Below are positions 7,221-48,730 of a DNA stretch of 61,437 bases, piece by piece. How positions within the stretch are numbered: the stretch's first letter is position 1; every line of letters starts with the position of its first letter. The notes under the pieces are model-generated. The model was not told the origin of the DNA and ran no database searches. It was given only the letters and a program-made list of their open reading frames with translations. A program made the position numbers and the translations under genes. The stretch is from a bacterium (lineage in GTDB: Bacteria > Hydrothermota > UBA3073 > JACQXS01). The DNA lies in contig JAUVIV010000001.1 in the NCBI GenBank assembly GCA_030592575.1, forward strand, positions 1-61,437, in the 5' to 3' direction.

Positions 7221-7616
7221 TTATATTTCCAGTTTAGTTGGAGATTGAGCTTTATGCGGATGCTCTACTCCTGCATATATCTTAAATTTATTTAACCTTT
7301 TAGCTCTTAATTTATTTTTGGGAAGCATTCCATGAACTGCATGATAAAGTATTCGTTCGGGATGCTCTTTCATCATACGATCAAATCTAATGAGTTTGAG
7401 TCCTGAAGGATATCCGGAGAATCGTTTGTAAAATTTCTTCTGTTCTTTGCCTCCGGTAACGACAACTTTATCAGCGTTTACACAGACAACAAAATCTCCA
7501 TCTTCTCTCCAAGGAACGTATGTAGGTTTGTTTTTACCTATAAGTATTCTTGAAATGTAAGTTGCAAGTCGTCCAAGAGACTGCCCATTTGCATCTATAA
7601 GCCACCATTTATTCAT
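7221..7616 (-). CDS. rplM: 50S ribosomal protein L13
   Basis: Start taken at MNKWWLIDANGQSLGRLA. The upstream 31 codons of the ORF overlap the promoter region. Confidence 0.9.
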   Translation of the reverse strand: MNKWWLIDANGQSLGRLATYISRILIGKNKPTYVPWREDGDFVVCVNADKVVVTGGKEQKKFYKRFSGYPSGLKLIRFDRMMKEHPERILYHAVHGMLPKNKLRAKRLNKFKIYAGVEHPHKAQSPTKLEI

Positions 7617-34034: not shown

Positions 34035-34325
34035 CTACTTTTTCTTCTCCAGTTTTTCAATCTTCTTCATAAGAGCATCTATGTCCGACTTTGTCGGAAT
34101 ATTGACTTTATTCAATACATCTCTCGTAGTATTCTCAACTATCTTTTCAATTTCTGCTCTCGTATCTTTACCTTTCTCAAGAAGTTTTTTGACAAATTCT
34201 GGCTGGTCTTTCTTGGCTACTTTCCCCTTTTTTACAAGGTCATCCACTATGTTCTCTGCCTTTTCCTTTGTGAGAGCAAAAGCTCCAAGACCTGCTGAAA
34301 GCATCCTCTCTATAAATCCTTCCAT
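34035..34325 (-). CDS. phasin-like (PHA granule-associated regulator family) small helical protein
   Basis: MEGFIERMLSAGLGAFALTKEKAENIVDDLVKKG. GGAGGTG SD. Confidence 0.6.
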   Translation of the reverse strand: MEGFIERMLSAGLGAFALTKEKAENIVDDLVKKGKVAKKDQPEFVKKLLEKGKDTRAEIEKIVENTTRDVLNKVNIPTKSDIDALMKKIEKLEKKK

Positions 34326-34399: not shown

Positions 34400-35272
34400 T
34401 TACGATTCACGGTTTTTAATTCTTGTTACCTTTAGTGCCATTTTTATCTTGATTTTTCCCAGTACTGGAATTTTAATAATACCTATTCCACTGACAGGTA
34501 TCAAGTTCTTTCCATTATCTAATAATCGAACACTCAATATTGTTGGATATTTCAATACGTCTGGTAACTTTTTGGAAGTCACGGTATAAATCACACCTTC
34601 TTCTACCACTTCCATTTTTGTCACTTCTACAACTACTTCACCGACTTTCATACCGGCATTCTTATCTGCCGTAAGCATATTTGCTACAAGAATTTTCCCT
34701 ACCGCCATCTTCTGAGTATTAACTTTGTACAAGAAATCTACAAGAACTGAAACCAGGTCTTGTATATCATAAGGAACATTCTTAAGAACCTTCCCATCTA
34801 CAAGCAGTTTTATAGATTGTTTTTCTCTATCATAATATATATGTTCAGTTATCTTCTTCGTTCCATCCTTTTGTTGTTTATATTCTATACACTGCACAGG
34901 CAGATGCGTCTCAATATCAATATAGGAATCAGAAGTTTCTGCTCCTTTATATACTTTGAGCAAACTTATAATAAAACCCAAAATCCCTCCGAGTTTATCC
35001 ACTTTTCCTCTTACCAAAATGACATTTTTGCCATTAACCTCTGTCTCTTTCACTGCTTGCAGACTTCCTGTACCAGATAGAAGAAATCGTCTTGCCGTGC
35101 AAGTGATTTTCGTCCCCGTTACCTTATATAATGAAAGTGTATCTAATTCGTGGGATTCTATAAATTGGCTTTTACACTCCAATATTTGTGTGTTCAGGCA
35201 AAATACGGAAATGACATAAATCCAGAGTGTATATGTAGACTTCCGTCTTAGAGGCAGAAGAAAGTTAGTCAT
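34400..35272 (-). CDS. hypothetical secreted protein at the distal end of the lipid locus
   Basis: Signal-like N-terminus. Beta-rich. 4 nt after the PlsC-type gene. Confidence 0.5.
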   Translation of the reverse strand: MTNFLLPLRRKSTYTLWIYVISVFCLNTQILECKSQFIESHELDTLSLYKVTGTKITCTARRFLLSGTGSLQAVKETEVNGKNVILVRGKVDKLGGILGFIISLLKVYKGAETSDSYIDIETHLPVQCIEYKQQKDGTKKITEHIYYDREKQSIKLLVDGKVLKNVPYDIQDLVSVLVDFLYKVNTQKMAVGKILVANMLTADKNAGMKVGEVVVEVTKMEVVEEGVIYTVTSKKLPDVLKYPTILSVRLLDNGKNLIPVSGIGIIKIPVLGKIKIKMALKVTRIKNRES

Positions 35273-35276
35273 ATTT

Positions 35277-35951
35277 TCAATATTTCACAAGTTCAGTGAT
35301 TTTAGCAATAACCATTTTGGTAGTTTCCCTTTCGGTTCGTTTGGGATAAATAGGTTTCCCAATATTAACAATTATTTTACCAGGACGAGGAATTTTACGA
35401 AATAACGCAAAGACATTATCAGTTCCTTGAATACCAACTGGAATAATAGGAACATTTGCCGTGTGAGCAAGAAAGAAAGCCCCTCTCTTGACTTTTTGTA
35501 TCTTATTGGTTAATCTTACACTTCCCTCGGGGAAAATCCCTATTATTCCTCTCCTTCTTAATATGTTTAAAGATTCTTTGAACGGTTCTCTTATTTGTAA
35601 TTGGCTAACCGAAATACATCCCATTCTAGATAGGAATACTCTTACTATTAGTCCTTCAAACAGATAAGATGCAGATAAAAAGGTGATTTTTCCTTTAAAT
35701 AAAGCAACTAAAACAAAACTATCAAACCAATTGATATGATTTGCTACAATAATAGAAGCATCTTTTTCTAAAATATTCTCTGCTCCCCTTACCCTTAGCG
35801 AGTAAAATATTGTAAGAACTATTCGAGTAGCCAGACGAATTGTATAATAAAAAGCCGATTTGCTATTTTGGTGTTTCACAAATTTCTTATCTCCTGAACA
35901 GCATAATGTCAATGATTTCTTGTATCTTTTTCCCAAGTCAGTCAGTAGCAA
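35277..35951 (-). CDS. PlsC/LPLAT-family acyltransferase
   Basis: HX4D motif NHINWFDSF. FPEGS motif. N-terminal TM. Confidence 0.8.
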   Translation of the reverse strand: MLLTDLGKRYKKSLTLCCSGDKKFVKHQNSKSAFYYTIRLATRIVLTIFYSLRVRGAENILEKDASIIVANHINWFDSFVLVALFKGKITFLSASYLFEGLIVRVFLSRMGCISVSQLQIREPFKESLNILRRRGIIGIFPEGSVRLTNKIQKVKRGAFFLAHTANVPIIPVGIQGTDNVFALFRKIPRPGKIIVNIGKPIYPKRTERETTKMVIAKITELVKY

Positions 35952-36008
35952 TTACTATCACTGAAGCTATTTTCTTGAATATATCCATGTATCTCCTTCT
36001 TTCAATAT

Positions 36009-36416
36009 CTATGGTGCAATATATAGTGTGTCAATGTCTATGCCTGTAAGGTTGTCTCCATCGTTTACTACAATTGAATCAGGCTCAAGATTATCATCCG
36101 GGTCATACCATCCTATCAAATCCTTGTCAGGCTCATATACGATATTCCCATTGGTATCTGCTATTGTCGTCACATAGTAAGTAGAAGGGTCAACCCTTAT
36201 TATCTTATAAGTCCCATCATTTCCTGCTTTCCATCCGTTGCTTAAGTTGATATCGCTCTCCTTTGATTTTAAGAGCAGGACATAAGTATTGGCTAAAGCT
36301 TGCTCTCCGTTTGTAACCTTTCCAGAAACAGTGCATTGCTCAATTTCCTCTTGCACATCCTTGCAGCCAGCAAATACTAAAAGCCCGACCAGCATTATGT
36401 AAAACTTTTTCATCAT
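36009..36416 (-). CDS. lipoprotein with carboxypeptidase-regulatory-like beta-sandwich
   Basis: Lipobox VFAGCKD. AAGGAAGGGGGG SD before ATG 36416. VSGKVTNGEQ...YVLL pattern. Confidence 0.55.
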   Translation of the reverse strand: MMKKFYIMLVGLLVFAGCKDVQEEIEQCTVSGKVTNGEQALANTYVLLLKSKESDINLSNGWKAGNDGTYKIIRVDPSTYYVTTIADTNGNIVYEPDKDLIGWYDPDDNLEPDSIVVNDGDNLTGIDIDTLYIAP

Positions 36417-36486
36417 CCCCCCTTCCTTATATTTTTCCCTGCTCATTTACCCAAATATTGTAACTATTACTCAAGAACACTACATA

Positions 36487-37602
36487 TTATTCAAATGGCA
36501 CTGAAATTGTCAGCCGGAATGAGAGCTTGGAATCTTTTCCTTCATATTTTCCCGACACAGATGTATCTACCCTATAATTAGAATAACTGTAACCAATTCC
36601 CCCTGTGTAGATTTTTTCTTCCTTCAATAAATCTGTACCATAAGCCCCGACTCGTATTGAGAGGTCTCCCTGTTTTAAGGATTGTCTGTTTTTGGTGCCA
36701 AAATTGCTTCTTTGTTTTTTTTCTCGTATAAATGTTTTCTCTGCTCCAGTATGATAAATGTAAGGGGCTTTATCATCCCACCTTTTTTCGACATCTGATG
36801 CTAAAATGAAACCCTTAAAAAGTTCTAAAGCTATACCTCCTCGCAAATTCGCATTTATTCGGTCTCCACTATAATCGTGCCAGTACATCTTTGCCAGAAC
36901 ATTCCGTGCAGCGAGTCCAATAGCAATTCGCTTTTTGGGATACAAGAAACCGATATCTATGCTGTAACCATTGCCACTATCCAGATTTATATTTGGTTCT
37001 TCCCACACTTCATTTTTTCTACTTTTTTCTGCAACTCCTATCCTGCCATTCAGGTATTTGACATTCATCCCCAGAATACAAGGCATTCCCTGGATTTCTT
37101 GGTCAGTGGCTCCCATAAGTGTGGTCATTGATAGAACAAATTCATTGATACTGTATTCAATGTCTTTCCATCTTTCAATTGTATCTCCATCCGCATTGAT
37201 GTTCTGTTCATACATGTTATTCTCACATATACTTGACAGCGGACGCCAGCTCAAAGCTCCCTGATTTTCTGAAAATGCAACAAATGACAATCTCTTACCA
37301 CTCAGTCCTGTCGCTGTTCTAAAGAGATTTACGACCTCTATATTCTCAACCTCTATATCCTTCATATCACTGAAGCCAAACATTGCTATTGATTGAGGAA
37401 GTAATCCCAATCCAGCTGGATTCCAGTAAATACAACTAGCGTCGCCACCAACAGCAACAAATGCTCCTCCCATTGCGAAAGGTCTGGCTCCTGATTCCAG
37501 TCCCCAATAGGCGCCCTCAAGAAGAGGAGCTTTCTCGGTGCCAGCAGACTCCCTTGAGAAAAATGTTAGGCATAGAATTGAAAAAATAACTCGTTTTTCC
37601 AT
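36487..37602 (-). CDS. FadL/PorV/PorQ-like outer-membrane beta-barrel
   Basis: Signal peptide. GARPFAMGGAFVAVGGDASCIYWNPAGLG N-terminal motif typical of this barrel class. Confidence 0.55.
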   Translation of the reverse strand: MEKRVIFSILCLTFFSRESAGTEKAPLLEGAYWGLESGARPFAMGGAFVAVGGDASCIYWNPAGLGLLPQSIAMFGFSDMKDIEVENIEVVNLFRTATGLSGKRLSFVAFSENQGALSWRPLSSICENNMYEQNINADGDTIERWKDIEYSINEFVLSMTTLMGATDQEIQGMPCILGMNVKYLNGRIGVAEKSRKNEVWEEPNINLDSGNGYSIDIGFLYPKKRIAIGLAARNVLAKMYWHDYSGDRINANLRGGIALELFKGFILASDVEKRWDDKAPYIYHTGAEKTFIREKKQRSNFGTKNRQSLKQGDLSIRVGAYGTDLLKEEKIYTGGIGYSYSNYRVDTSVSGKYEGKDSKLSFRLTISVPFE

Positions 37603-37633
37603 ATCATCTTAATAGTGCATTCAACTAATTTTC

Positions 37634-39004
37634 TCAGAAATTCACTTCTGTCTTGAAGTAAAGTTGGTCTTGCTCTTTCCATTCGCCAAAGAGAGTTCCC
37701 AACTTTCCATCTAAAAGAAATGCTCCAACCAAGAGTTTTACATTATCAGTTGGAACATAAGATAACTCAGGGATAATTACAGTGCCGTAGTTTTTCTCTA
37801 TATCCTCAATATCTTTTATCTCTAAACCACCAGATACAGCAATCTTAATCTCATCATTTTTGAATTTCTGTTCAATTCCTGCCATAACATAGTCCTCAAG
37901 ATTATCTTTTCCTCGTTCAGCAAAGAAGCCATGCATCCATTGAGCATTGATATAGACTCCGGTCTTAAGGGTATAATCTCCACCAAGAGTGAATTTCATA
38001 TAAGGTTCGTCAGAGAGAATGGTTGTATCTTGAATTATGGGATTCAAAGGATCTGCAGGATTTGGCATTTTTATTTCCATCTTTACTTCTTCAGGCAAGA
38101 ACATTGCTACTTCTCCCCAGAGACCTATAGAACAAAGCTCTCCAGCACAATCAAAGCCAATGGCTCGAAATTTTGGAAATCCCAAATAGGTATCAAGTTT
38201 CACATTTCCCAAAGTATCAACAGGAGTTACAGCAAGCTTATTTGCAATAGGTACATCGTCATAACCCCAAAAGTATGATAGCGAAAAGTCGTATTCTTCA
38301 ATCTTTCCAGACAACTTTGTAGCATACATAGAGTTTTCAGGCTTTCTGTCAGGGAAAGTAAGATGTTCTACTGACTCTGCAAGATTTGTCCCTGTGGGTA
38401 AAGGAAGAGCATCCGTACTACCTAATAAAGGAAATTCACCTCTGGGCAACAAAATAGGCTTGAGAGATGGAAGCCATATAGCACTTAAGTTGTATTCATC
38501 ACTTAAATTATAAATAGCATTTACAGCCTCCGTAGGTATTTTCTCTCCAAAATTCAGAGGGTCAGAAAAATCATCAGGATTTAGATTGTCTGTCGGATTG
38601 AGTTTATCTGCTGTTCCCCAAGCTATTCGCTGTTTACCAATCCGTAGGTCTAATTCATCAACAATAAAACCGTAAAGATCGGCATAGGCTTCCCACAGAG
38701 AAAGTTCATAAGGATTGTTAAATGAAATCTCAGCCAAATCTGCCGAACTACTTGCAAGATTTTGGTCCCATAACCTGAATTTCATACCGGCATAGAGAAA
38801 TAGATTTTTGGATGGACTTGATTGTAGTTTTAAGTTAAGTTCGTGATATGGATAATCTGCGATTCTTACACTATCTGCTACGAGAAAACGCTTGTCCAGT
38901 TTGAGATTACCTGAAATATCTATCTCCCCCATACAAATTTTGGGACTACTTATAATACTCATTCCTAATAATATAAGAATGATACGAAAAGAAATTTTTG
39001 TCAT
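37634..39004 (-). CDS. large outer-membrane beta-barrel protein (DUF1302-like context)
   Basis: Signal peptide. Alternating strand pattern. C-terminal YFKTEVNF beta-signal. Confidence 0.55.
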   Translation of the reverse strand: MTKISFRIILILLGMSIISSPKICMGEIDISGNLKLDKRFLVADSVRIADYPYHELNLKLQSSPSKNLFLYAGMKFRLWDQNLASSSADLAEISFNNPYELSLWEAYADLYGFIVDELDLRIGKQRIAWGTADKLNPTDNLNPDDFSDPLNFGEKIPTEAVNAIYNLSDEYNLSAIWLPSLKPILLPRGEFPLLGSTDALPLPTGTNLAESVEHLTFPDRKPENSMYATKLSGKIEEYDFSLSYFWGYDDVPIANKLAVTPVDTLGNVKLDTYLGFPKFRAIGFDCAGELCSIGLWGEVAMFLPEEVKMEIKMPNPADPLNPIIQDTTILSDEPYMKFTLGGDYTLKTGVYINAQWMHGFFAERGKDNLEDYVMAGIEQKFKNDEIKIAVSGGLEIKDIEDIEKNYGTVIIPELSYVPTDNVKLLVGAFLLDGKLGTLFGEWKEQDQLYFKTEVNF

Positions 39005-39041
39005 TATATACCTCCATTTTTGACGCTCTACGCCTCACGCT

Positions 39042-39416
39042 TTATGTGTGTAGCGTTGTGTGTTTATCATTCAATGTGTTTCTAAATGCACGGATTTTTG
39101 CCTCTAACTTATCACACAATTCATAAATGTCTCTGACATCTTCAGCGGTAATAAATTGTAGTCGTTCGCATATCTTCAAGCAACTAAGAACCTCGATAAG
39201 TGATTTCAGGGAAATGCCCAGATACCTCCGGAATTCAGCATCGGTATTAGCTTCCCTTCCTTCCGCAATATTCAGTGACATGGAAGTAACTGCTCTCTTT
39301 ACTTGATTGGACAATTCATACTTCTCTTTAACAAGCAATAGTTTTGTCAGGCTACATACCTTCTCTATTAGTTCAAGCAAAAGATGCCAAATCTCTAAAA
39401 TTTCAAAACTATACAT
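39042..39416 (-). CDS. four-helix-bundle protein (23S rRNA intervening-sequence / Avd-like family)
   Basis: 124 aa. SNQVKRAVTSMSLNIAEG motif. Confidence 0.8.
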   Translation of the reverse strand: MYSFEILEIWHLLLELIEKVCSLTKLLLVKEKYELSNQVKRAVTSMSLNIAEGREANTDAEFRRYLGISLKSLIEVLSCLKICERLQFITAEDVRDIYELCDKLEAKIRAFRNTLNDKHTTLHT

Positions 39417-39455
39417 TTTTATCTTCTTGCTTTAAGCATATGGTATTAAGCGTCT

Positions 39456-40199
39456 TTATTTCGCTCTCTTGAGCATTCGTTTAGTGAACATACTTGCTTC
39501 AAGCCCTGTGTCGTGCGTAACAATTCCAAGTTCCATAACAGTACTATGCTGTATTTTTAGGTTTTTCATTGTTACCTTTTTAGGAGTCCAGTAACCATCT
39601 ATTTTTTCTGTATCCTCATTTTCCATAACCTTGAGAACGGTTCCTTTCTTGCTATAGTATTCTACCTTACTTGGAATATAATGTGTTTTATTCACTCGCA
39701 TAATAAGTTTAGCGTAATCTATATCTGATTTCGGTGTAGGAGTGAGCTTCAATACATACTCTTTTTCTGTTTCCTTTTCTATTTTAGCGGTAAAGTCCTT
39801 AGTATATTGGCATTTACCAATATCGTTGTAAGAGAAATCTGTCCCCATAAAGCTCTCGTTCTTCACATGAGAAGCAATACGTCTTATCTTTTTGAATGCA
39901 GGCATATAAAGATACATCTCATTATCGGAGAAAACTAAAAACCCAACTCCTTTTACATCGGCGGGAGAAAGAAATCTTATAAGTCGTTTTTCTTTTCCCA
40001 ATTGCCACATCTTTATCTTGCGAACCTTAGAATCCCCATCCTTATCTATTAGCGTAAGGTTTATATTTGCTATTCTATCGTTTGGAGCATTCATGGCATC
40101 TTCTACTTTCTTCAAAATTTTGTCACCTGTCTCTGCCAAAAGAATAAGTGGCAGAAAAAGAGCAACACCTATTTCCAAAAGCTTTTTCATACGGTACAC
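39456..40199 (-). CDS. LolA-like outer-membrane lipoprotein-sorting protein
   Basis: Signal peptide. LIRFLSPADVKGVGFL...ESFMGTDFSYNDI motifs. Confidence 0.75.
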   Translation of the reverse strand: MYRMKKLLEIGVALFLPLILLAETGDKILKKVEDAMNAPNDRIANINLTLIDKDGDSKVRKIKMWQLGKEKRLIRFLSPADVKGVGFLVFSDNEMYLYMPAFKKIRRIASHVKNESFMGTDFSYNDIGKCQYTKDFTAKIEKETEKEYVLKLTPTPKSDIDYAKLIMRVNKTHYIPSKVEYYSKKGTVLKVMENEDTEKIDGYWTPKKVTMKNLKIQHSTVMELGIVTHDTGLEASMFTKRMLKRAK

Positions 40200-40230
40200 C
40201 TCCTTTTTTTATATTTTATGCTTGACGCAT

Positions 40231-43107
40231 TCAGCGTCTGGTCTTCATAAATCTAGCCTTAGTAACAAGAATTAGTGCTGGCAAAAATGTAATAGCTCCT
40301 AAGGCACTAGTTATCATCGTAAATGCTATTAGATAACCGAATCGCTGCATAGGAACTATGTTTCCCAAAACTAAAACCAGAAATCCCATCATTACAGAAA
40401 TAGCATTGATGAGAATTGCCTTCCCTGTCGTCTCCAGTGTTTTATCCAAAGCCTCCAATTCAGACTTGTTTTTCCCCATCTCATGCTTAAATCTATTGAT
40501 AAAATGAATGGTATAATCAATACCAATCCCAACAGCTACGCTGCCTATCATAACAGTAACGATATCTAATGGAATATTTAGAACTGTCATCAGAATGAAA
40601 TTGATGAGAATAGTGAGAATAATAGGTGATATTGAGATTAACCCACCAATCAAGGATTTCAGTTGAAAAGACAGAAGAAGAAAGACCAAAAAGATAGCAA
40701 TAGAGAGGCTCAATGCCTGACTCCTCATTATTTTTTTATCTATATCCATATAGATTATAGGCATTCCTGTTTGTTGGGCAGCCAAATTCACTCTATTTTT
40801 GGAATTGAAAGCGTCAGCATATTTTGAATTCTCCACAGCAAGCCAGTCTTCATTTATTTCCCAACAATTATCCCGTAAATCTTCCAAGAAGTCCCTATCA
40901 TCCCTTAAATTTTCAGGAAGAAATGGCTTTAACTCTTGCACAAGATTATTAATCTTTGTCCATCTTTTAAAATCAGCTATGATTTCCGTAATTGATTCGG
41001 CAGAATATTCCAGAACTTCAGTATCCCCGATATAATTTTTTTTAGGAATGTTTCTCTTCAGAACACTAATAATCTTTTTTTCACCAATCTCTCCTGTTTT
41101 TAACCCTACAAGAACACCATCAACAACTTTAGTAATAATTCTTTCTGATTCTATTTGGATATCTGCTTCATCGCTTTTGAAATAGTCAATAATTCTTTGT
41201 TTTAATCTTTTTGTTGATGCTTCACCAAATGCTTCCTGTCCATTTTGCATTCCTGCAATGATACCCTTTATCAGAGTAGTGTCAGAAACTTGAAATTGGG
41301 GGTTTCTCATCTTAATATCCCACTTTATTTTTGATAGAATTTCATTTGCCCGTTCCATTCTCAATGTTTTAGCCATATCGGGAGAAGCAAGAGAGATTTT
41401 AACTTCAAGCAAATCCGTTTTAAATTCATTTTTCAAATAATCCTCAATTGCATCCACTAAAGTCCTGACTTCTCCCGTGCTTACTGTTCCCAATTTTGCT
41501 TGAATCAACCCCTCATTCGCTTGATTATTTATCAACTGATTTAATACTTCATTTCCTTCTATGAACAACCAGAGATTAGCTACTCCTTCTCTTGTTTCAG
41601 GAATGGTATAATGACCATTCATTACCCCATTTATTTCGCAAATTAAGTCGGCAATAGATTGTGGGTCATTTACATTGGCTTGAATTTCTAAATATTTTTC
41701 AAATTTGAGCATCTCTTTCAAAACAAAAGGGTTCTTCAAATCTCCTTTAACCAAAATCTGAATCGGAATAGAGCCACCAAGCTTCTCTTCCATCATCTCC
41801 TCAGTCTGTCTAATTTCACTGTCCTTTTCAAAATAGCCAATCATATTGACTTCTCGCTGTAATCTGGGAATAGCAAAGAAAGAGATTACAATAATAGTAA
41901 TCCCCATTCCTATGATAAGTTTTTCGTGTTGAAGAATAAACGCTCCCAATCTGTCCATTAGTCTTGTTAAAAGGTCATTTTCAATTCCTTTATGATTTAG
42001 TTTAACTTTTCCAACTCTCAACAGAGAGAGCATTGCAGGCAAGAAAGTTACAGAGATAAGCATAGCAAACATTACTCCGATAGCAGTGAAAATACCAAGC
42101 TCTCGAATCAAGCTCAATTCGGAAGATAAAAAGGCTAAAAATCCAATTAAAGTGGTAATGCCAGCTAAAAAGATAGGAATCCCTACCTCACTTAAAGCAT
42201 CTTTTATCCCTTGGATCTTATTGTCTCCTAATCTAACATCCTCGTTATATTTAGAAAGCATATGAATTCCATAAGCGCTACCAATGGCAACAAGCAAAAC
42301 CGGTATTACATCAGCGGCAATAGTTAAAGGAATTTTCATTAAACTCATTATTCCCATAGCCCATACTGTACTCATAAGAACAGTAGCCAATGGTAAAAAG
42401 ATTCCTCTAAAACTTCTAAAGCTGAAAAAGAGAGTAATCATTACCAATAGAATGACTAAAGGAATAAGTTTACTCAAATCTTTAATAATAACGTCTGCCA
42501 GGAAAATCATCTGGAATGGCATTCCACCATAATATATCTTCTCCTTGCCCTGAGTCTCTTTAACAAGTTCTTTCATTTGTTTCCCAGCTTCTACCTTATC
42601 AATATCTTCTACAAGACGTGCAATAATAACCGTTATTTTACCGTCTTCGGAAACCATATTACCTCTATACATATCTTTAGAAAGAGTATATTCTTCCAAC
42701 TTTTTTAGCTCATCCGGATTTTCGGGAATATTATGTCTATCAATCAGTTTGCCAACTTCTAGACCCCATTCTGTCTTTTTAATATCCAGAATATCCGTTA
42801 TGCTCATTACATAAGAAACTCCGTCCATCTGTTTAAGCTTCTCAGTGATTTCGTCAACTCTATTCAGCGTTTCATAGTTAAACACATTATCGGTTTCCAA
42901 AGCCACCATAGCTAATGAGCTACCACCAAATTTATCTCCAATTTCATTGAATAGTACTACCAGAGGATCGTCCTGGGGTAAATAGGTGAGAATGTCACTA
43001 TTTATCTTTAGATTCTTCAATTGATAGCCAAAGAACCCGGTTAAAGCAACTACCGAAACAATAATAATTACCCGATATTTTATGACCAGATTAGCAAATC
43101 TTCTCAT
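40231..43107 (-). CDS. MMPL/RND-superfamily exporter (COG1033-type, 2 x 6 TM)
   Basis: 958 aa. Two TM bundles (..AIGSAYGIHMLSKY.. and ..GIGIDYTIHFINRF..) separated by large soluble loops. Confidence 0.88.
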   Translation of the reverse strand: MRRFANLVIKYRVIIIVSVVALTGFFGYQLKNLKINSDILTYLPQDDPLVVLFNEIGDKFGGSSLAMVALETDNVFNYETLNRVDEITEKLKQMDGVSYVMSITDILDIKKTEWGLEVGKLIDRHNIPENPDELKKLEEYTLSKDMYRGNMVSEDGKITVIIARLVEDIDKVEAGKQMKELVKETQGKEKIYYGGMPFQMIFLADVIIKDLSKLIPLVILLVMITLFFSFRSFRGIFLPLATVLMSTVWAMGIMSLMKIPLTIAADVIPVLLVAIGSAYGIHMLSKYNEDVRLGDNKIQGIKDALSEVGIPIFLAGITTLIGFLAFLSSELSLIRELGIFTAIGVMFAMLISVTFLPAMLSLLRVGKVKLNHKGIENDLLTRLMDRLGAFILQHEKLIIGMGITIIVISFFAIPRLQREVNMIGYFEKDSEIRQTEEMMEEKLGGSIPIQILVKGDLKNPFVLKEMLKFEKYLEIQANVNDPQSIADLICEINGVMNGHYTIPETREGVANLWLFIEGNEVLNQLINNQANEGLIQAKLGTVSTGEVRTLVDAIEDYLKNEFKTDLLEVKISLASPDMAKTLRMERANEILSKIKWDIKMRNPQFQVSDTTLIKGIIAGMQNGQEAFGEASTKRLKQRIIDYFKSDEADIQIESERIITKVVDGVLVGLKTGEIGEKKIISVLKRNIPKKNYIGDTEVLEYSAESITEIIADFKRWTKINNLVQELKPFLPENLRDDRDFLEDLRDNCWEINEDWLAVENSKYADAFNSKNRVNLAAQQTGMPIIYMDIDKKIMRSQALSLSIAIFLVFLLLSFQLKSLIGGLISISPIILTILINFILMTVLNIPLDIVTVMIGSVAVGIGIDYTIHFINRFKHEMGKNKSELEALDKTLETTGKAILINAISVMMGFLVLVLGNIVPMQRFGYLIAFTMITSALGAITFLPALILVTKARFMKTRR

Positions 43108-43140
43108 CTTTTACTCCTTTCCTAATTGTTTGTTTTGAGA

Positions 43141-43395
43141 TTATTCATTTGACGGTAACTTTGTACGAAGATATTCCACCACATCTCCCATTGTCTTAAG
43201 TTTTTCTTCATCATCAATAAGGATAATGGCGTTGACACCAAACTCTTCTCCAATATCCATAATGAACTCAACCATATCCAATGAATCTACTCCTAAATCG
43301 TCAACAAAAGATGCTTCTGGCGTAACCTGTTTTTCAAGAACTTTTATGTATTTGACAATAATCCTCTCTACTCTCTCGTATAATGTTAATTTCAT
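43141..43395 (-). CDS. acyl carrier protein
   Basis: DLGVDSLDMVEF phosphopantetheine motif. ATG 4 nt after the upstream ACP stop. Confidence 0.85.
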   Translation of the reverse strand: MKLTLYERVERIIVKYIKVLEKQVTPEASFVDDLGVDSLDMVEFIMDIGEEFGVNAIILIDDEEKLKTMGDVVEYLRTKLPSNE

Positions 43396-43399
43396 TGCT

Positions 43400-43642
43400 T
43401 TATTTGATGTTAAATGTTTCATTTTCTATATATTTCACAGCATCCTCTACGGTTTTAAGTTTTTCGACAGCCGAGTCTGGAATCTGGATATTAAACTCTA
43501 TTTCAAGTGCCTGAAGCAATGCAACATAATCAAGACTGTCCGCTCCCAAATTGTTTGCAAAAGAAGTTTCTGGCAAAACTTCTGCCTCTTTCACGCAAAG
43601 TGTTTCCGCAATAACCTTTTTTGCTCTTTCAAATACTGCCAT
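43400..43642 (-). CDS. acyl carrier protein
   Basis: NLGADSLDYVALLQALE motif. 80 aa. Confidence 0.88.
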   Translation of the reverse strand: MAVFERAKKVIAETLCVKEAEVLPETSFANNLGADSLDYVALLQALEIEFNIQIPDSAVEKLKTVEDAVKYIENETFNIK

Positions 43643-44270
43643 AATTTACCTCCTGTGATGTATCTGGATTCAATAACATTTTTATCTCACTCATTATTTG
43701 CGTGGTTACAACTTTCAATATTTTTTTATTGTAAGGTTTATCATAGTGTTTATCAAAATAAATCGGTTTACCAAATTTGACAATTACCTTGCGGGGACGG
43801 GGAAATTTTTGTCCCTTTGACATAACATTGAAAGTACCTACTATTGCAACCGGAACAACAGGTGCTTTTGTTTGCAAAGCAATAAATGCTGTTCCTAATT
43901 TTGGCTCCTGCAAAGAACCGTCTTTGCTTACCGTTCCTTCTGGATACATATCAATTATATGTCCTTCTTTAAGAATACTAACAGCAACTCGGATAGCTTC
44001 TCTATCACTTTCTCCTCTTTTTACAGGAAAAGCATTCAATTTTCTAAAAATAAATTCTGCGAAACGTTTTCTAAACAGTTCTTCTTTACCCATTGTATGA
44101 AGTTGTCTTTTAATTGCAATTCCCAGAACAAATGAATCTAAATCACTGGGATGATTTGGCGCCAGTATCACACCACCCTGTTCGGGAATATTTTCATCGC
44201 AAACGGCTTCTAATCTAATATAAACCATTGCTATAACTCTTATGATTAAATGTGCAATTGAATAAAACAT
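43629..44270 (-). CDS. LPLAT/PlsC-family acyltransferase
   Basis: HX4D motif NHPSDLDSF. YPEGT motif. 14-nt overlap with the ACP start. Confidence 0.82.
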   Translation of the reverse strand: MFYSIAHLIIRVIAMVYIRLEAVCDENIPEQGGVILAPNHPSDLDSFVLGIAIKRQLHTMGKEELFRKRFAEFIFRKLNAFPVKRGESDREAIRVAVSILKEGHIIDMYPEGTVSKDGSLQEPKLGTAFIALQTKAPVVPVAIVGTFNVMSKGQKFPRPRKVIVKFGKPIYFDKHYDKPYNKKILKVVTTQIMSEIKMLLNPDTSQEVNYGSI

Positions 44271-44311
44271 TTTCGCTTTTAGTCAAAGATATTTGATTTT
44301 ATAGGTAAGGA

Positions 44312-45745
44312 CTATTTACTGTTGCTTTGTAAATACTCTTTTTCCCAGATGTCTTTTGTTAATTCTCCTATTTTATCTCCGTATGCCGTAAGTTTTTTGC
44401 GATATTCCTCATCATTCAAAGCGTCTTGGACATTCTCATCTATAGAGTAAGGCTTGTGACATTTTAAAAGCTTATGATACATTCCATAGTGGTCCCGGAT
44501 AGGACAGGTTCTTAAAAGATTTCCCTTCTTATCTTTTGGTTGCTTATAAGCGTATTCATCCTGCCATTTTCGTATTGCCTTGAAGAACTCAGAATTCAAA
44601 ACAGTATTCAGATTACCACCATTCTTATAGACCTCATTAATATTGTGAACAGTATAAGGTTGAAAAACACAAGGAGTGCAATCTCCATTCCAATTTATGT
44701 AAAAATATCCCTCTGTTCTGCCTGCTGCTATGCACCCCTCTGAGGCAGTCCCATCATTCCAGAAGTCTGCAATGAAAATCTTTCGTTTTCTCACTATTTC
44801 CCTGTTCTTCTTCCACATAAAAAGTCGTTGCTCCGGCGTAGGCATAAGGTCAATCGTATAACTTCTACCTATTGGCATATAATGGAATATCCAACCGTAA
44901 GATGCCTTTGGTTCTTTTTCAAAATAGAAATCATAAAACTCATCACTTGTTATTATATCTACATTCTGTGAGGTTGCAGTTATAGATAACCCAAAGGGAA
45001 CTCCTGCATCTTTCAAGTTTTGCATTGCTTTCCTTATACGTTTATAACTCCCTTCCCCTCTTCGTGCATCAGTTTCTTTTTCAAATCCTTCAACAGAAAT
45101 AGCAGGAGTAATATTACCTAATTCTGCAAGTCTTTTTGCAACCTTTTCATCAATAAGAGTTCCATTTGTGTACATCAGAAAAAATGTATCCTTATGTTTT
45201 TTCACTATATCAAAGATTCCTTTATAAAGAAGTGGCTCTCCACCTGATATGACCGTAAAATAAGAACCCCATAATTCCCTTGTCTCTCGTATAATTCGGT
45301 CAAACACATCAAAAGTAAGTTTATCAGCATTTTGCACTCCAGCATTAGCATAACAACCCTTACATCTCAGATTACAAGCATTGCTTGGACTTATAGTAAG
45401 GAAGTGTGGAGGTTTAAATCCAAACTTACTATTAAACTTCTCCTTCACTTCAGCGTCCCCATCAGCAAGCATTTTGTCTACTCCAATATCCAGAATAACA
45501 TCTTTCCATCGCGAAGAAATATTACTTGATAGTGCCCTTTCAGCGGTATGAAGCAAAGCTTTTCCCATGTAGAACATATCTTGTACCTGTTCAAAAGGAC
45601 AAGAATCCCCTTTATCTAGGAGAATTGCTTTATATATTTCACTATCAGCTTTTTTAAGTGCAATTTTTCTAATTGCACTGCTCCGAATGGCAGTACGCGC
45701 AAGTCCCTTAACTGATTTTACCCATGAATCCTTCGCTTTGCTCAT
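44312..45745 (-). CDS. radical SAM enzyme, SPASM/Twitch type, paralog B
   Basis: CNLRCKGCYA cluster motif about 120 aa from the N-terminus. GGEPLLY. C-x15-G-x4-C (GCIAAGRTEGYFYINWNGDCTPC). One distal Cys. Confidence 0.85.
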   Translation of the reverse strand: MSKAKDSWVKSVKGLARTAIRSSAIRKIALKKADSEIYKAILLDKGDSCPFEQVQDMFYMGKALLHTAERALSSNISSRWKDVILDIGVDKMLADGDAEVKEKFNSKFGFKPPHFLTISPSNACNLRCKGCYANAGVQNADKLTFDVFDRIIRETRELWGSYFTVISGGEPLLYKGIFDIVKKHKDTFFLMYTNGTLIDEKVAKRLAELGNITPAISVEGFEKETDARRGEGSYKRIRKAMQNLKDAGVPFGLSITATSQNVDIITSDEFYDFYFEKEPKASYGWIFHYMPIGRSYTIDLMPTPEQRLFMWKKNREIVRKRKIFIADFWNDGTASEGCIAAGRTEGYFYINWNGDCTPCVFQPYTVHNINEVYKNGGNLNTVLNSEFFKAIRKWQDEYAYKQPKDKKGNLLRTCPIRDHYGMYHKLLKCHKPYSIDENVQDALNDEEYRKKLTAYGDKIGELTKDIWEKEYLQSNSK

Positions 45746-47208
45746 AGCAATCTTCTTCTTTTTCTATTAAGAGGATTTGATATACTTGTTTGCAAATATT
45801 CTTTTTCCCAGATGTCTTTTGTTAATTCTCCTATCTTATCTCCGTATGCCGTAAGTTTTTTGCGATATTCCTCATCTTTTAAAGCATCCCGAGCATCTTT
45901 ATCTATAGGATAAGGTTTGTAACGTTCTAAAAGCTCACGATATAGTCCGTAATGATCCCTGATAGCACAAGGTCTCAAGAGATTTTCTTTTTTATCTTTC
46001 GCTTGTCCATAACCATATTCATTTTGCCATTTTCGTATGGACTTGAAGAAATCAGAATTCAAGACAGTATTCAGATTACCACCATTCTTATAGACTTCAT
46101 TAATATTATGGATGGCATAAGGTTGAAAAACACAAGGAGTGCAATCTCCGTTCCAATTGATATAAAAATATCCTCCTTGCCTACCCGCCGAAATACAACC
46201 GTCCGATACAGTCCCATCATTCCAGAAGTCTACGATTAATATCTTTCGCTTTCTTACTATTTCTCTGTTCTTCTTCCACATAAAAAGTCTTTGCTCCGGC
46301 GTAGGCATAAGCTCAATGGTATAACTCCTACCTATTGGCATATAATGGAATATCCAACCGTAAGATGCCTTTGGTTCTTTTTCAAAATAGAAATCATAAA
46401 ACTCATCACTTGTTACTATATCTACATTCTGTCTCGTTGCTGTTATAGATAATCCAAAAGGAACTCCTGCATCTTTCAAGTTTTGCATTGCTTTCCTTAT
46501 ACGCTTATAAACTCCCTTTCCTCTTCGTGCATCTGTTTCCTTTTCAAACCCTTCAACAGAAATAGCCGGAGTAATATTACCCACTTCCGCAAGTCTCTTC
46601 GCAACTTTCTTATCAATGAGAGTTCCATTTGTATATACCAAGAAAAATCTATCTTTGTATTTTTCCGCTATATCAAAAAGTTTTTTATAGAGGAACGGCT
46701 CTCCACCTGATATGACCGTAAAATAAGAACCCCATAGTTCCCTTGTCTCTCGTATAATTCTGTCAAATACCTCAAAAGTAAGTTTATTAGCACTTTGGAC
46801 TCCAGCATTAGCGTAACAACCTTTACATCTCAAATTACAAGCATTGCCTGGGCTTATAGTAAGAAAGAGAGGAGGGTTAAACCCAAACTCACTATTAAAT
46901 TTCTTTTTCGCCGCCGTATCTTTAGCAGTAACCATTTTCTTTGTCACATTATTAACAAGAATATTCGTGCATTGCGGAGAGATACCACTTAATATTGCTT
47001 TGTCTGCCGAGTGAAGTAAAGCACTTCCCATATAAAATTTGTCTTCTCGCTCCCTAAAAGGATGAATATCCGAGTCTTTCGAAATAAGTTCTTTATATAC
47101 TTCACTCTCAATCTTTTTGAGCGCAAGCTTTCTAATCGTACTACTTTGAACCGCAGTACGCACAACTCCCTTCATTGATTTTACACCCAGGTTCTTCACA
47201 TTGCCCAT
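45742..47208 (-). CDS. radical SAM enzyme, SPASM/Twitch type, paralog A
   Basis: Same motifs as paralog B. AGGGAGGG SD. 4-nt ATGA overlap with paralog B. Confidence 0.85.
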   Translation of the reverse strand: MGNVKNLGVKSMKGVVRTAVQSSTIRKLALKKIESEVYKELISKDSDIHPFREREDKFYMGSALLHSADKAILSGISPQCTNILVNNVTKKMVTAKDTAAKKKFNSEFGFNPPLFLTISPGNACNLRCKGCYANAGVQSANKLTFEVFDRIIRETRELWGSYFTVISGGEPFLYKKLFDIAEKYKDRFFLVYTNGTLIDKKVAKRLAEVGNITPAISVEGFEKETDARRGKGVYKRIRKAMQNLKDAGVPFGLSITATRQNVDIVTSDEFYDFYFEKEPKASYGWIFHYMPIGRSYTIELMPTPEQRLFMWKKNREIVRKRKILIVDFWNDGTVSDGCISAGRQGGYFYINWNGDCTPCVFQPYAIHNINEVYKNGGNLNTVLNSDFFKSIRKWQNEYGYGQAKDKKENLLRPCAIRDHYGLYRELLERYKPYPIDKDARDALKDEEYRKKLTAYGDKIGELTKDIWEKEYLQTSISNPLNRKRRRLL

Positions 47209-47229
47209 AATGCCCTCCCTTGCAAATCA

Positions 47230-47256
47230 TTAGACCAAAATGGTTTTTTAGTCTAA
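47230..47256. promoter_or_regulatory. candidate TetR operator TAGACT-N13-GGTCTA between tetR and the radical SAM genes
   Basis: Inverted repeat TTAGAC..GTCTAA read directly. Same architecture as 47868-47892. Confidence 0.5.
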
Positions 47257-47270
47257 TTTTGACAAAAAAA

Positions 47271-47846
47271 TTATCTCTTTTTTATTCCCTCGAATAAAGT
47301 TTCTAACAAGATATTAATATTTTTTTTGATATTTGTCGTTTTGGTTTTTATTGTCAAGGGATATTCTAATCCTTTTAAGGCAGTAACAATCGCAAAAGAA
47401 GTCAAGTGTGGATTTCTGACAGCAAAAATACCTTTTTCTACCCCTTCTATTAGAAAAGCTTTTATCGTTTCGATTTCTTCTTCAAAATCTTTTTTTCTTA
47501 TTTTCTCAATAAATGAGTAATGTTCTAAATATTCATCTTTGAGTACGTTGTAAAAATTAGCCAATTGCCTGAGACACTGCATTCTTGTTAGTATAAATAT
47601 TTGTAGTTTTTCTACTGGAGAAGTTGCTTTCTCCACAGCTTTTTTTATTTTCATGGCTAAGAATTTGCCTTCCCTCTCTATCACCGCTTTAAAAATATCC
47701 TCTTTGGTTTCAAAATAATAATAAATTGTGCTTTTCCCCATATGAAGAGCTTTGGCAATCTCATCCACAGTAGTTTTCTTGAACCCGAATCTCGCAAAAA
47801 GATCTCTTGCGGTTTCAACGATACCTTCTTTTCTATCTTCTTTCAT
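47271..47846 (-). CDS. TetR/AcrR family transcriptional regulator
   Basis: N-terminal HTH FGFKKTTVDEIAKALHMGKSTIYYYF. Confidence 0.9.
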   Translation of the reverse strand: MKEDRKEGIVETARDLFARFGFKKTTVDEIAKALHMGKSTIYYYFETKEDIFKAVIEREGKFLAMKIKKAVEKATSPVEKLQIFILTRMQCLRQLANFYNVLKDEYLEHYSFIEKIRKKDFEEEIETIKAFLIEGVEKGIFAVRNPHLTSFAIVTALKGLEYPLTIKTKTTNIKKNINILLETLFEGIKKR

Positions 47847-47867
47847 TAGTTTCTTTTGTTAAACATT

Positions 47868-47892
47868 TAGACTAAAACATTCTAACAGTCTA
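47868..47892. promoter_or_regulatory. candidate TetR operator TAGACT-N13-AGTCTA just downstream of the tetR promoter
   Basis: Perfect 6-bp inverted repeat read directly. Confidence 0.55.
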
Positions 47893-47896
47893 TTTT

Positions 47897-47924
47897 TAAA
47901 TATTGCCTAATTTAAGTTTGTCAA
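47897..47924 (-). promoter_or_regulatory. promoter TTGACA-N16-TATTTA for tetR (and probably the operon)
   Basis: Minus-strand hexamers at 47924-47919 and 47902-47897. Confidence 0.5.
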
Positions 47925-48003
47925 GAAAAATCGAAAATTTTTTTGCATAATTTGAAATCGTGCCTACCTCCCTTGACTCCACAGGACATCAAGAAATACT
48001 TTT

Positions 48004-48072
48004 ATCTTTGTGCCCTTTGTGTTCTTTGTGGTTAAAAAAATCCTGCTCAAGAAATGTGTTCTTTGTGGTTAA
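48004..48072. repeat. CAC(A/G)A(A/G) repeat modules (complement orientation)
   Basis: CTTTGTGCCCTTTGTGTTCTTTGTGGTT and TGTGTTCTTTGTGGTT. Confidence 0.7.
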
Positions 48073-48091
48073 GGTAAAGATTTTTTTCTGA

Positions 48092-48119
48092 TTGACTTTT
48101 TCCTGTAATTGTGTAATAT
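48092..48119 (+). promoter_or_regulatory. promoter TTGACT-N16-TAATAT, 11 nt before ATG 48131
   Basis: Read directly. The ORF-track start (48092) is the TTG of the -35 box. Confidence 0.45.
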
Positions 48120-48130
48120 GTAATATACAA

Positions 48131-48730
48131 ATGAATGAGTTTAAGCTTAGGTTTGTTTCTTGGATTGGATGGTTTCTTGTTACTATTATAGGCAAGAGCC
48201 TTAGAATAAGACTTGAAGGTGAAATCCCTAAAGGTCCAGTGATTTATGCTTTTTGGCATAGCGATTTTTTCCCTCTTGTTTATGCTAATAGGAATAGAGG
48301 CATTGTTGGTCTTGTAAGTCCTCATCAGGACGGCGAGTATCTTGCGAGAATGCTCAAACCCTTGGGATATAAAGTTGTGAGAAGCACAAGTGGAGACAAG
48401 GGTATAAAAGGAGTTCGCAAGATTTTGAAATTAAAGAAAAACGATTTTGCAATTGCTCCTGACGGTCCTATAGGACCGGCTTATCAGGTAAAAAATGGAG
48501 TCTTGAAACTTGCCGAACTTACCGACTTACCAATTATTCCCATAGGAATCGGCATTTCAAGACTTATAAGATTTAATAGTTGGGATAGATTTAAACTTCC
48601 TTTGCTATTTTCAAAATGTGTAATTTATTGGGGAGCTCCTATTTGGGTCAAGAAATCAACGGAAGAATTAAGAGAGCGGCTTGAATCTGATTTGATTAAT
48701 GTTAATATGCTTGCAGATTCACTTTTATAG
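48131..48730 (+). CDS. DUF374-type lysophospholipid acyltransferase family protein
   Basis: FWHSDFFP and APDGPIGP motifs. Start taken at MNEFKLRF. Confidence 0.72.
   Translation: MNEFKLRFVSWIGWFLVTIIGKSLRIRLEGEIPKGPVIYAFWHSDFFPLVYANRNRGIVGLVSPHQDGEYLARMLKPLGYKVVRSTSGDKGIKGVRKILKLKKNDFAIAPDGPIGPAYQVKNGVLKLAELTDLPIIPIGIGISRLIRFNSWDRFKLPLLFSKCVIYWGAPIWVKKSTEELRERLESDLINVNMLADSLL

Follow-up and report, generated by a model that had tools for sequence, protein, structure and literature searches.

Gene Content of the Locus

The stretch of DNA analyzed here, referred to as the window, comprises 61,437 nucleotides (61 kb) of contig JAUVIV010000001.1 from an uncultured WOR-3 bacterium. It contains a long run of minus-strand genes that includes two tandem genes for radical S-adenosylmethionine (SAM) enzymes, denoted here as rSAM-A and rSAM-B. 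Judged from their sequences, these two proteins are members of the Mss family of bacterial enzymes that join the acyl tails of lipids. We propose that the two genes belong to a TetR-controlled operon for tail-coupled lipids, to which modules for acylation and for export to the outer membrane have been added in certain lineages. The original prediction for this locus had described a system of unprecedented composition in which ordinary acyl chains are altered by radical chemistry and delivered to the outer membrane.

The coordinates, strands, and spacing of the open reading frames (ORFs) were compared with the original prediction, and domains were assigned using Pfam and NCBIfam. The 14 minus-strand genes between positions 34400 and 47846 were reproduced, including their coordinates, spacing, and domain calls (Table 1). 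The genes for rSAM-A and rSAM-B share 4 nucleotides, and the genes for the first lysophospholipid acyltransferase (LPLAT) and the first acyl carrier protein (ACP) share 14 nucleotides. The cluster had been placed at 34400–48730. The 14 same-strand genes within these limits stand, but at the left end the run goes beyond 34400, through a phasin-like gene and UbiB, to 32310. The divergent gene upstream of tetR has a DUF374 domain by Pfam; it was dropped as a member of the system, since it was never found near the radical SAM gene in the other loci examined. Pfam scans of the annotated ORFs of at least 110 amino acids in the window, which covered all but a few of them, gave no ketosynthase, ketoreductase, dehydratase, thioesterase, ammonia lyase, or acyl-ACP synthetase. 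This agrees with the earlier statement that the chain-building genes are missing.

Table 1. Genes and candidate operators of the mss cluster, in window coordinates.
Feature	Position	Strand	Basis of assignment
Candidate TetR operator 1	47868..47892	.	TAGAC-N15-GTCTA upstream of tetR, facing the divergent DUF374 gene
TetR-family regulator	47271..47846	-	PF00440 (TetR_N), E 1.5e-16; weak likeness to FadR-type TetR model NF053878
Candidate TetR operator 2	47231..47255	.	Second exact palindrome, between tetR and the first mss gene
mss paralogue A (rSAM-A), 488 aa	45742..47208	-	Radical_SAM + SPASM; 39% identity to T. maritima Mss
mss paralogue B (rSAM-B), 477 aa	44312..45745	-	Radical_SAM + SPASM; 76% identical to paralogue A
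PlsC/Aas-type lysophospholipid acyltransferase 1	43629..44270	-	PF01553, E 2.9e-27; HPSDLD motif
Acyl carrier protein 1	43400..43642	-	AcpP model NF002148, 93.9 bits vs cutoff 71; GADSLD serine
Acyl carrier protein 2	43141..43422 (likely start 43395)	-	NF002148, 78.7 bits; GVDSLD serine
HAE3/MMPL RND inner-membrane lipid transporter	40231..43107	-	PF03176, E 8e-57; TIGR00921 HAE3, E 7e-88
LolA-like (TP_0789-like) periplasmic lipid chaperone	39456..40199	-	PF17131, E 2.2e-57; signal peptide
Four-helix-bundle (23S rRNA IVP family) gene	39042..39416	-	PF05635, TIGR02436
Outer-membrane protein, DUF1302-like	37634..39004	-	Weak PF06980 match, E 1.6e-4; signal peptide
PorV/FadL-like outer-membrane barrel	36487..37602	-	NF033709 PorV_fam, E 1e-13, below cutoff; signal peptide
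Small lipoprotein	36009..36416	-	Lipobox LVFAGC; no family match
PlsC-type acyltransferase 2	35277..35951	-	PF01553, E 5e-20; HINWFD motif
DUF3108 secreted protein	34400..35272	-	PF11306, E 1.5e-7
Phasin-like amphipathic protein	34035..34325	-	PF05597, E 7e-13; outside the range first predicted
UbiB/ABC1 atypical kinase	32310..33971	-	PF03109, E 8e-77; two C-terminal hydrophobic segments; outside the range first predicted

Relationship of the Radical SAM Proteins to Mss

Two Mss enzymes have been confirmed, one from T. maritima (Tmari_0825, AGL49750) and one from T. ethanolicus (WP_129545148.1) (Sahonero-Canavesi et al. 2022; PMC13159169). By pairwise BLASTP, rSAM-A was found to be 39% identical over 370 amino acids to T. 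maritima AGL49750.1 (E 3e-87), and rSAM-B was 41% identical to a protein from Thermotoga sp. Mc24 (E 2e-83); being pairwise, these E values are not scaled to database size. The Mc24 protein and the T. maritima entries AAD35906.1 and AGL49750.1 fall in a single 90% cluster. A 2026 preprint uses AGL49750 for the Mss of T. maritima and AGL49404 for Ger, and under the offset Tmari_n = AGL(48925+n) these two accessions correspond to Tmari_0825 and Tmari_0479, respectively. The published threshold for an Mss homologue is an E value of 1e-50 or lower together with an identity of at least 30% (PMC13159169), and both rSAM-A and rSAM-B fall within these limits. The lengths are also similar: 477–488 amino acids for the window proteins and 482 for the T. 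maritima enzyme.

The route to this assignment led through plasmids. A tblastn search of plasmid sequences returned a 459-amino acid homologue on a plasmid of E. albertii (35% identity, E 2e-63), the relatives of which include every genus of the Thermotogales. Cluster membership of the Thermotogales homologues then led to the accession named in the 2026 preprint. Protein searches seeded with a window radical SAM protein and with a homologue from a Eubacteriales metagenome-assembled genome (MAG) gave only uncultured relatives. The T. ethanolicus enzyme (446 amino acids) was absent among the matches listed, and a cluster look-up of the homologues of 434–508 amino acids gave no named match.

When 18 diverse homologues were aligned, the cysteines of the CX3CX2C motif (C124, C128, and C131) were invariant in 18 of 18, and beyond this motif only three other cysteines (C338, C359, and C414) were invariant. 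Because there are just three, the proteins would be expected to carry one Twitch-like auxiliary cluster and not a full SPASM domain. Of the earlier description of the two proteins as SPASM/Twitch enzymes, it is thus the Twitch-like part that holds. The three auxiliary cysteines are kept in both alignments to the Thermotoga Mss. The Radical_SAM domain (PF04055) was matched with E values of 1e-23 and 2e-24, and for neither protein did any NCBIfam model reach its cutoff. The AlphaFold2 model of rSAM-A has a pLDDT of 85.9, and its N-terminal segment of ~110 residues is all-helical, with five helices.

When expressed anaerobically in E. coli, Mss joins two fatty acyl tails at the omega or omega-1 position to give C32–C34 diacids (PMC13159169). 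In this reaction, a hydrogen is abstracted from the omega or omega-1 carbon and the tails are joined to form a C30–C34 alpha,omega-diacid of the diabolic or iso-diabolic type. The native substrate is presumed to be a phospholipid, although this is unproven, with a free acid or an acyl-ACP as alternatives. The catalytic genes of the window are new members of this known family, their enzyme chemistry is probably already known, and the most likely reaction for rSAM-A and rSAM-B is the C–C coupling of acyl tails. The original prediction had listed coupling, cyclization, branching, and ether formation as conceivable outcomes of radical chemistry on acyl chains. The lipid context of that proposal is retained and coupling is now the likeliest outcome; the other chemistries are not favored, since homology to Mss makes coupling the default. 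The identities of 39–41% also mean that Mss is a homologue of these enzymes, and not the mere conceptual precedent for an uncharacterized system that it had been taken to be.

Homologues of the two radical SAM proteins are abundant and ~45–55% identical across phyla. Their hosts include WOR-3, KSB1, Latescibacterota, Aminicenantes, Chloroflexota, Nitrospirota, Planctomycetota, Omnitrophota, Spirochaetales, Armatimonadota, Clostridia, and one DPANN archaeon. The reported spread of Mss covers candidate phyla, the FCB group, Chloroflexi, Spirochaetes, Planctomycetes, Clostridia, DPANN, and the gamma-proteobacteria (PMC13159169). The two agree both in phyla and in their occurrence in anaerobes. 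Genes of the Mss family were also observed on the E. albertii plasmid pEA5_1 (L089, 2254–3633; IncF typing) and on the K. pneumoniae plasmid NZ_CP077819.1; the proteins are ~50% identical to the Mc24 orthologue of Mss, and no lipid genes adjoin the copy in E. albertii. Homologous proteins are also on record for Salmonella, Edwardsiella, Klebsiella oxytoca, and Photobacterium.

Comparison with Other Radical SAM Families

Tes/GDGT-MAS had been suggested as a near precedent, and here the comparison gave little. The alignments to PDB entry 7TOL cover only the radical SAM core, with E values of 9.5e-6, 2e-5, and 9.4e-4, where the criterion for a Tes homologue is E < 1e-50 over the full length (Zeng et al.). 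In a Foldseek search, 7TOM ranked 35th (TM 0.38, rmsd 17) and trailed SkfB, anSME, and SuiB. Membership in this family was rejected on both counts; as far as these alignments and the model can tell, Tes/GDGT-MAS is an analogue of the window enzymes and not a relative.

The prominence of SkfB, anSME, and SuiB, which are the top solved-structure matches by sequence as well as by fold, raises the question of whether rSAM-A and rSAM-B could instead be SPASM/Twitch maturases of a peptide (a ribosomally synthesized and post-translationally modified peptide, RiPP) or of a cofactor, with the lipid genes as mere neighbors. The top NCBIfam matches (MftC, NirJ, and AhbD) point in the same direction, all of them far under their cutoffs. 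There is no conserved precursor-like small ORF in the window or the related loci, however, and the all-helical N-terminal domain of the model, judged by its helix content, would not resemble a RiPP recognition element. The likeness to Mss (E 3e-87) is also far above that to any maturase (~1e-14). We consider a maturase to be highly improbable.

Gms, the synthase of glycerol monoalkyl glycerol tetraethers, carries a full SPASM domain with two auxiliary [4Fe-4S] clusters. The window proteins, with three conserved cysteines beyond the radical SAM motif, were set apart from Gms by comparison with its description, and this candidate was rejected. A distinct radical SAM gene does lie beside mss in two related loci (L083, 6622–8091; L086, 8457–9932). 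Its product is AhbD-like (E 3e-83, below cutoff) and combines a full SPASM domain with ~120 extra amino acids at the N terminus; this layout matches the published architecture of Gms, again by description.

Gene Neighborhoods of mss

The neighbors of the family were surveyed in the best 80 species-level loci by family profile, taken from MAGs of more than 15 phyla, with WOR-3, KSB1, Aminicenantes, Chloroflexota, Planctomycetota, Spirochaetales, Clostridia, and DPANN among the hosts. The ORFs were searched with the window proteins, and the neighbors were clustered de novo. A neighbor was counted when it lay on the same strand within 6 kb, and the counts are minima, with at least 5 kb available on both sides in 32 of the 80 loci. 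The most frequent neighbors were the phasin-like gene (16/80), UbiB (14/80; range 14–15), patatin (14/80), and TetR (12/80, or 15 without the limits on strand and distance). These were followed by an MsbA-like ABC transporter and DegV (7/80 each), a B12-binding radical SAM gene (4/80), and the LolA-like and DUF1302-like genes (3/80 each). RND was found in 2 of the 80 (4–5 without the same limits), LPLAT in one, and ACP in none.

The general context of mss is membrane-lipid handling, and TetR, phasin, UbiB, and patatin are its general partners. On a contig from Aminicenantes, for example, the order is TetR, patatin, mss. The phasin-like gene and UbiB, which the original prediction had left outside the cluster, are among the most conserved neighbors of the family; the former also occurs near mss in loci L083, L084, L087, L088, and L094, and the latter in L083 and L087. 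In the four species with a B12-binding radical SAM gene, it lies directly beside the mss homologue (e.g., L044, 8439–9863) and could encode a lipid methylase or a ring synthase.

A different picture was obtained for the close relatives of the window cluster, which have proteins 58–83% identical to those of the window and are mostly labeled as WOR-3 (Table 2). In these loci, LPLAT and ACP genes (sometimes with PlsX) and the RND/LolA-like/DUF1302 exporter recur near mss in shuffled orders. The exporter is paired with mss in more distant loci as well, namely, L003 from KSB1 and L018 from WOR-3, together with L036 and L041. The linkage of mss to acylation and export genes is real but confined to certain lineages. 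The original prediction had suggested looking for this linkage across phyla, and had stated that radical SAM homologues elsewhere without linkage to ACP, acyltransferase, or exporter genes would count against it. Since ACP was found in 0, LPLAT in 1, and the exporter in 3–5 of the 80 loci, that is largely what is seen across phyla; the co-localization is present in the close relatives.

Table 2. Order of genes in loci closely related to the window cluster.
Locus	Genes
L081/L082	TetR, mss, unassigned 220-aa protein, LPLAT, ACP, ACP; no exporter
L083	PhaR-like, AhbD-like radical SAM, mss, phasin, patatin, UbiB, TetR, ACP, RND, LolA-like, DUF1302
L084	TetR, LPLAT, ACP, mss, LpxL-like acyltransferase, hydrolase, RND, LolA-like, DUF1302, lipoprotein, patatin, LPLAT2, phasin
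L085	TetR, PhaR-like, LPLAT, ACP, mss
L087	TetR, mss, hydrolase, PlsX fragment, phasin, UbiB
L088	PhaR-like, mss, full PlsX, RND, LolA-like, DUF1302, LPLAT, ACP, phasin, patatin, LPLAT
L094	TetR, RND (83% identical to that of the window), LolA-like, DUF1302, phasin, TetR, mss

TetR and Its Candidate Operators

The palindrome TAGAC-N15-GTCTA has exactly two matches in the 61-kb window, one on either side of tetR (Table 1). Shuffled sequences averaged 0.04 matches, and 0 of 100 shuffles held two or more. The candidate operators for this TetR are TAGACTAAAAAACCATTTTGGTCTA and the 47868–47892 site. Exact copies of the palindrome are also present upstream of tetR in L081 and L082, and between TetR and the radical SAM gene in L081, L082, and L087. 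Its coordinates in the relatives are 7571–7595 and 8209–8233 in L081, 13255–13279 in L083, and 9952–9976 in L087. TAGAC-N15-GTCTA is likely to be the operator of this TetR. In L083 the palindrome lies between TetR and the genes for ACP, RND(MMPL), LolA-like, and DUF1302 proteins, and because it precedes this set, the exporter and ACP would be tied to the same regulator.

In Thermotoga sp. Mc24 (L091, 6949–10037), the gene order is a SPASM radical SAM gene (323 amino acids), mss, and TetR. Since TetR adjoins mss there as well, the pairing of the two would be ancient. On the Methanosphaera plasmid pNP174 (L090, 5248–6960), a radical SAM homologue that is shorter, with 361 amino acids, is encoded immediately after a TetR gene.

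Acyl Carrier Proteins and Acyltransferases

The top NCBIfam match of acyltransferase 1 is acyl-[ACP]--phospholipid O-acyltransferase, and both acyltransferases of the window have an HX4D motif. Orthologues of acyltransferase 1 adjoin mss in L081, L082, L084, L085, and L088, and ACP1 is kept in the same five loci. Orthologues of ACP2 are found in L081, L082, and L083, and those of acyltransferase 2 in L084 and L088. The PlsX of L088 is full-length and bona fide (349 bits vs a cutoff of 243). Three other loci have short ORFs beside mss: one of 48 amino acids with a weak PlsX-family/FA_synthesis match (L084, 2534–2680), one of 147 amino acids with a PlsX-family match (L087, 12375–12818), and one of 49 amino acids with no match (L085, 9848–9997). 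These ORFs may be remnants of a PlsX gene like the complete one in L088.

The recurrence of LPLAT-ACP(-ACP) beside mss in five separate relatives, together with a true PlsX in L088, bears on the mechanism that had first been put forward for this locus. There, acyl chains are loaded onto the two dedicated ACPs, altered by radical chemistry (cyclization, branching, ether formation, or coupling), esterified by the LPLATs, and exported. In a sharpened form, the Mss clade of the window acts on acyl-ACP with one tail per carrier protein. The literature leaves room for such a substrate, since a phospholipid, a free acid, and an acyl-ACP all remain candidates for native Mss, and this clade is only ~40% identical to the tested enzyme. 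However, tail coupling is the default chemistry for an Mss homologue, and Mss is active in E. coli without the ACPs of the window. Moreover, ACP was found near mss in 0 of the 80 distant species, and no acyl-ACP synthetase or loading enzyme was found among the ORFs scanned in the window. On balance, we regard the ACP-based mechanism as improbable.

The Exporter Module

The RND protein has ~12–13 hydrophobic segments. Its HAE3 match scores 295 bits vs a cutoff of 352, and it has an HpnN-like match with an E value of 4e-45. The LolA_like match of its neighbor is strong, and the DUF1302 match of the outer-membrane protein is below cutoff. The RND gene adjoins mss in L003, L018, L036, L041, L083, L084, L088, and L094. 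In the relatives, the LolA-like gene always comes after the RND gene and is followed by orthologues of the DUF1302-like gene (E 1e-97 to 1e-244). When metagenomes were scanned with the RND protein, two loci only were obtained. HAE3 pumps are known to transport hopanoids or other hydrophobes, and Ame-type cassettes add to the pump a DUF1302 outer-membrane protein and a protein of the LolA superfamily (PMC6394551). The exporter of the window resembles these AmeABCD-type HAE3/DUF1302/LolA-like cassettes more than it does the exporter of the aryl polyene (APE) clusters.

It is fair to ask whether this exporter has anything to do with Mss. The functional unit could consist of tetR, mss, phasin, and UbiB, set beside an Ame-type efflux cassette for hydrophobes or envelope lipids and beside LPLAT and ACP genes for ordinary phospholipid turnover, all of them collected in one membrane-homeostasis region but with no substrate in common. 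The survey of 80 species, in which the exporter and LPLAT/ACP genes were seldom beside mss, would be expected under such an arrangement. So would the partial sets in the close relatives, where L081/L082 have LPLAT-ACP-ACP without the exporter and L083 has the exporter and ACP without LPLAT, and so would locus L093, where the exporter trio occurs away from any mss. In addition, Ame-type cassettes act on unrelated hydrophobes. Against this, nine loci, which represent three or more lineages (WOR-3, KSB1, and unclassified MAGs), have the exporter only a few kb away from mss in differing gene orders, and L088 and L084 interleave the mss, acylation, and exporter genes on one strand. The same operator also stands ahead of ACP-RND in L083. 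We consider adjacent but separate modules to be the less likely reading.

Other Genes and Genomic Setting

The four-helix-bundle gene, the DUF3108 gene, and the DUF374 gene have no counterpart near the radical SAM gene in any related locus examined. The first of these, absent from every related cluster, is probably an unrelated insertion. Among the related loci, the PorV-like barrel has a single weak counterpart, in L085, and the small lipoprotein has a homologue in L084 (E 7e-32). The ORF at 31346–32104, beyond UbiB, has no Pfam match.

Housekeeping genes (dnaA, gpsA, dxs, coaX, panC, clpB, and those for ribosomal proteins) surround the cluster. dnaA is close to the left end of the window (3948–5264), and the GC skew flips its sign with gene strand at ~8, 24, and 48 kb. 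The region appears to be ordinary chromosome and is possibly near the origin. Two of the housekeeping genes, panC (51243–52091) and coaX (21045–21824), belong to pantothenate/CoA metabolism, and panC is also near the cluster in L083 (3528–4376). Their proximity may reflect plain synteny or a tie to the supply of phosphopantetheine for the extra ACPs.

Proposed Function of the Cluster

We propose, with a probability of roughly 55%, that the cluster is a TetR-controlled mss operon for tail-coupled diacid lipids that is accompanied by lineage-specific modules for acylation and outer-membrane export. The operon would be a chromosomal one of a WOR-3-type anaerobe, with the two tandem copies of mss as its core. 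The two Mss paralogues would make tail-coupled lipids from acyl chains that are supplied or re-esterified by the two PlsC/Aas-type acyltransferases and the two dedicated ACPs (with PlsX in relatives), and the patatin of the relatives would deacylate. The HAE3 RND pump, the LolA-like chaperone, and the DUF1302-like outer-membrane protein, together with the extra barrels and the lipoprotein, would take the two-headed lipid out of the inner membrane and across to the outer one. The phasin-like protein and the UbiB kinase would deal with the hydrophobic intermediate at the membrane surface or within it, and TetR would leave its operators upon binding a fatty acyl ligand. The phasin, UbiB, and PhaR-like families are familiar from hydrophobic-surface or lipid contexts.

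Several observations weigh against this proposal. The function is carried over ~40% identity from a tested Mss, and the comparison covered one of the two confirmed enzymes, that from T. maritima and not T. ethanolicus WP_129545148.1. ACP and LPLAT are missing near mss in 79–80 of the 80 distant species, and the exporter is missing in ~75 of them. Because E. coli formed diacids with mss alone, the dedicated ACPs and LPLATs are not needed for catalysis. L093 carries an exporter trio 46% identical to that of the window with no mss within 10 kb. Finally, scans for promoters and terminators did no better than on shuffled sequence, and the single-operon structure is thus drawn from gene spacing.

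A more specific version can also be formulated, in which the Mss of the WOR-3 clade works on ACP-bound chains and not on finished membrane phospholipids. One tail per ACP would be presented for coupling by the duplicated Mss enzymes, the two PlsC-type acyltransferases (with PlsX in relatives) would attach each end of the diacid to its own glycerol backbone, and the RND/LolA-like/DUF1302 route would lead to the outer membrane. This version is speculative and quite improbable. If true, it would be the first pathway described in a diderm for assembling and exporting the membrane-spanning lipids of bacteria.

The membrane-spanning lipids of bacteria, which include diabolic acid, iso-diabolic acid, and the branched glycerol dialkyl glycerol tetraethers, are in wide use as climate proxies, and their producers and assembly are unsettled. 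By the present analysis, an uncultured WOR-3 bacterium carries two genes of the Mss family. The analysis further indicates that the family has recurring lipid-handling surroundings, with TetR, phasin, UbiB, and patatin in general and with PlsX/PlsC/ACP and an outer-membrane exporter in the clade of the window. The main Mss paper makes no mention of gene neighborhood, transporter, outer membrane, or acyl carrier protein (PMC13159169), and a gene cluster or neighborhood is likewise unmentioned in the 2026 Bacillota paper. A targeted literature search for clusters of radical SAM, ACP, MMPL, and LolA genes found nothing relevant. The locus offers hypotheses that can be cloned, concerning the substrate of Mss, the crossing of the periplasm by a two-headed lipid, and regulation through a defined candidate operator. 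The conserved accessory genes and this operator provide testable handles on the assembly, regulation, and export of bacterial membrane-spanning lipids.

Comparison with Known Systems

The closest system is Mss itself. The window proteins share with it the CX3CX2C motif and the same three downstream cysteines, a similar length, an adjoining TetR gene, anaerobic hosts, and the same phyla. They differ in that the window has tandem duplicated copies, set among two ACPs, two PlsC-type acyltransferases, the HAE3 RND/LolA-like/DUF1302 exporter, phasin, and UbiB, whereas the mss of Thermotoga is adjoined only by a second SPASM radical SAM gene and TetR. The product and regiochemistry of the window enzymes would be those predicted by homology. 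With Tes/GDGT-MAS (PDB 7TOL/7TOM), they would share the use of a radical SAM domain and an auxiliary cluster for the radical coupling of two inert lipid tails, but the alignment is confined to the radical SAM core (E 1e-5 to 1e-3).

The nearest parallels to the exporter are HpnN and the HAE3 RND cassettes of the AmeABCD type (PMC6394551). With these cassettes it would share an HAE3 RND pump, a DUF1302-type outer-membrane protein, and a periplasmic protein of the LolA superfamily, for hydrophobic cargo. Unlike AmeABCD, the window has no AmeC (BNR/COG4447) partner, its LolA-like protein belongs to PF17131 and not to DUF1329, and its DUF1302 match is weak. The window also adds a PorV/FadL-like barrel and a lipoprotein, and its exporter is linked to a predicted lipid synthase, whereas the Ame cassette is linked to catabolism.

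The resemblance to the APE cluster of E. coli (apeA-R, PMC8253772) is at the domain level only. It consists of LPLAT, ACP, and ACP, of a LolA-like protein with RND, and of a product that would be attached to lipid and moved to the outer membrane. The roles first assigned by this analogy (ApeD for LPLAT, ApeE and ApeF for the ACPs, ApeL for the LolA-like protein, and ApeM for RND) agree with the published table (PMC8253772). The window lacks the ketosynthases, reductase, and dehydratases of that cluster as well as the ApeH loader, the ApeK thioesterase, ApeG, and ApeN (DUF3261), and the enzyme that would modify the acyl chains in their place is Mss.

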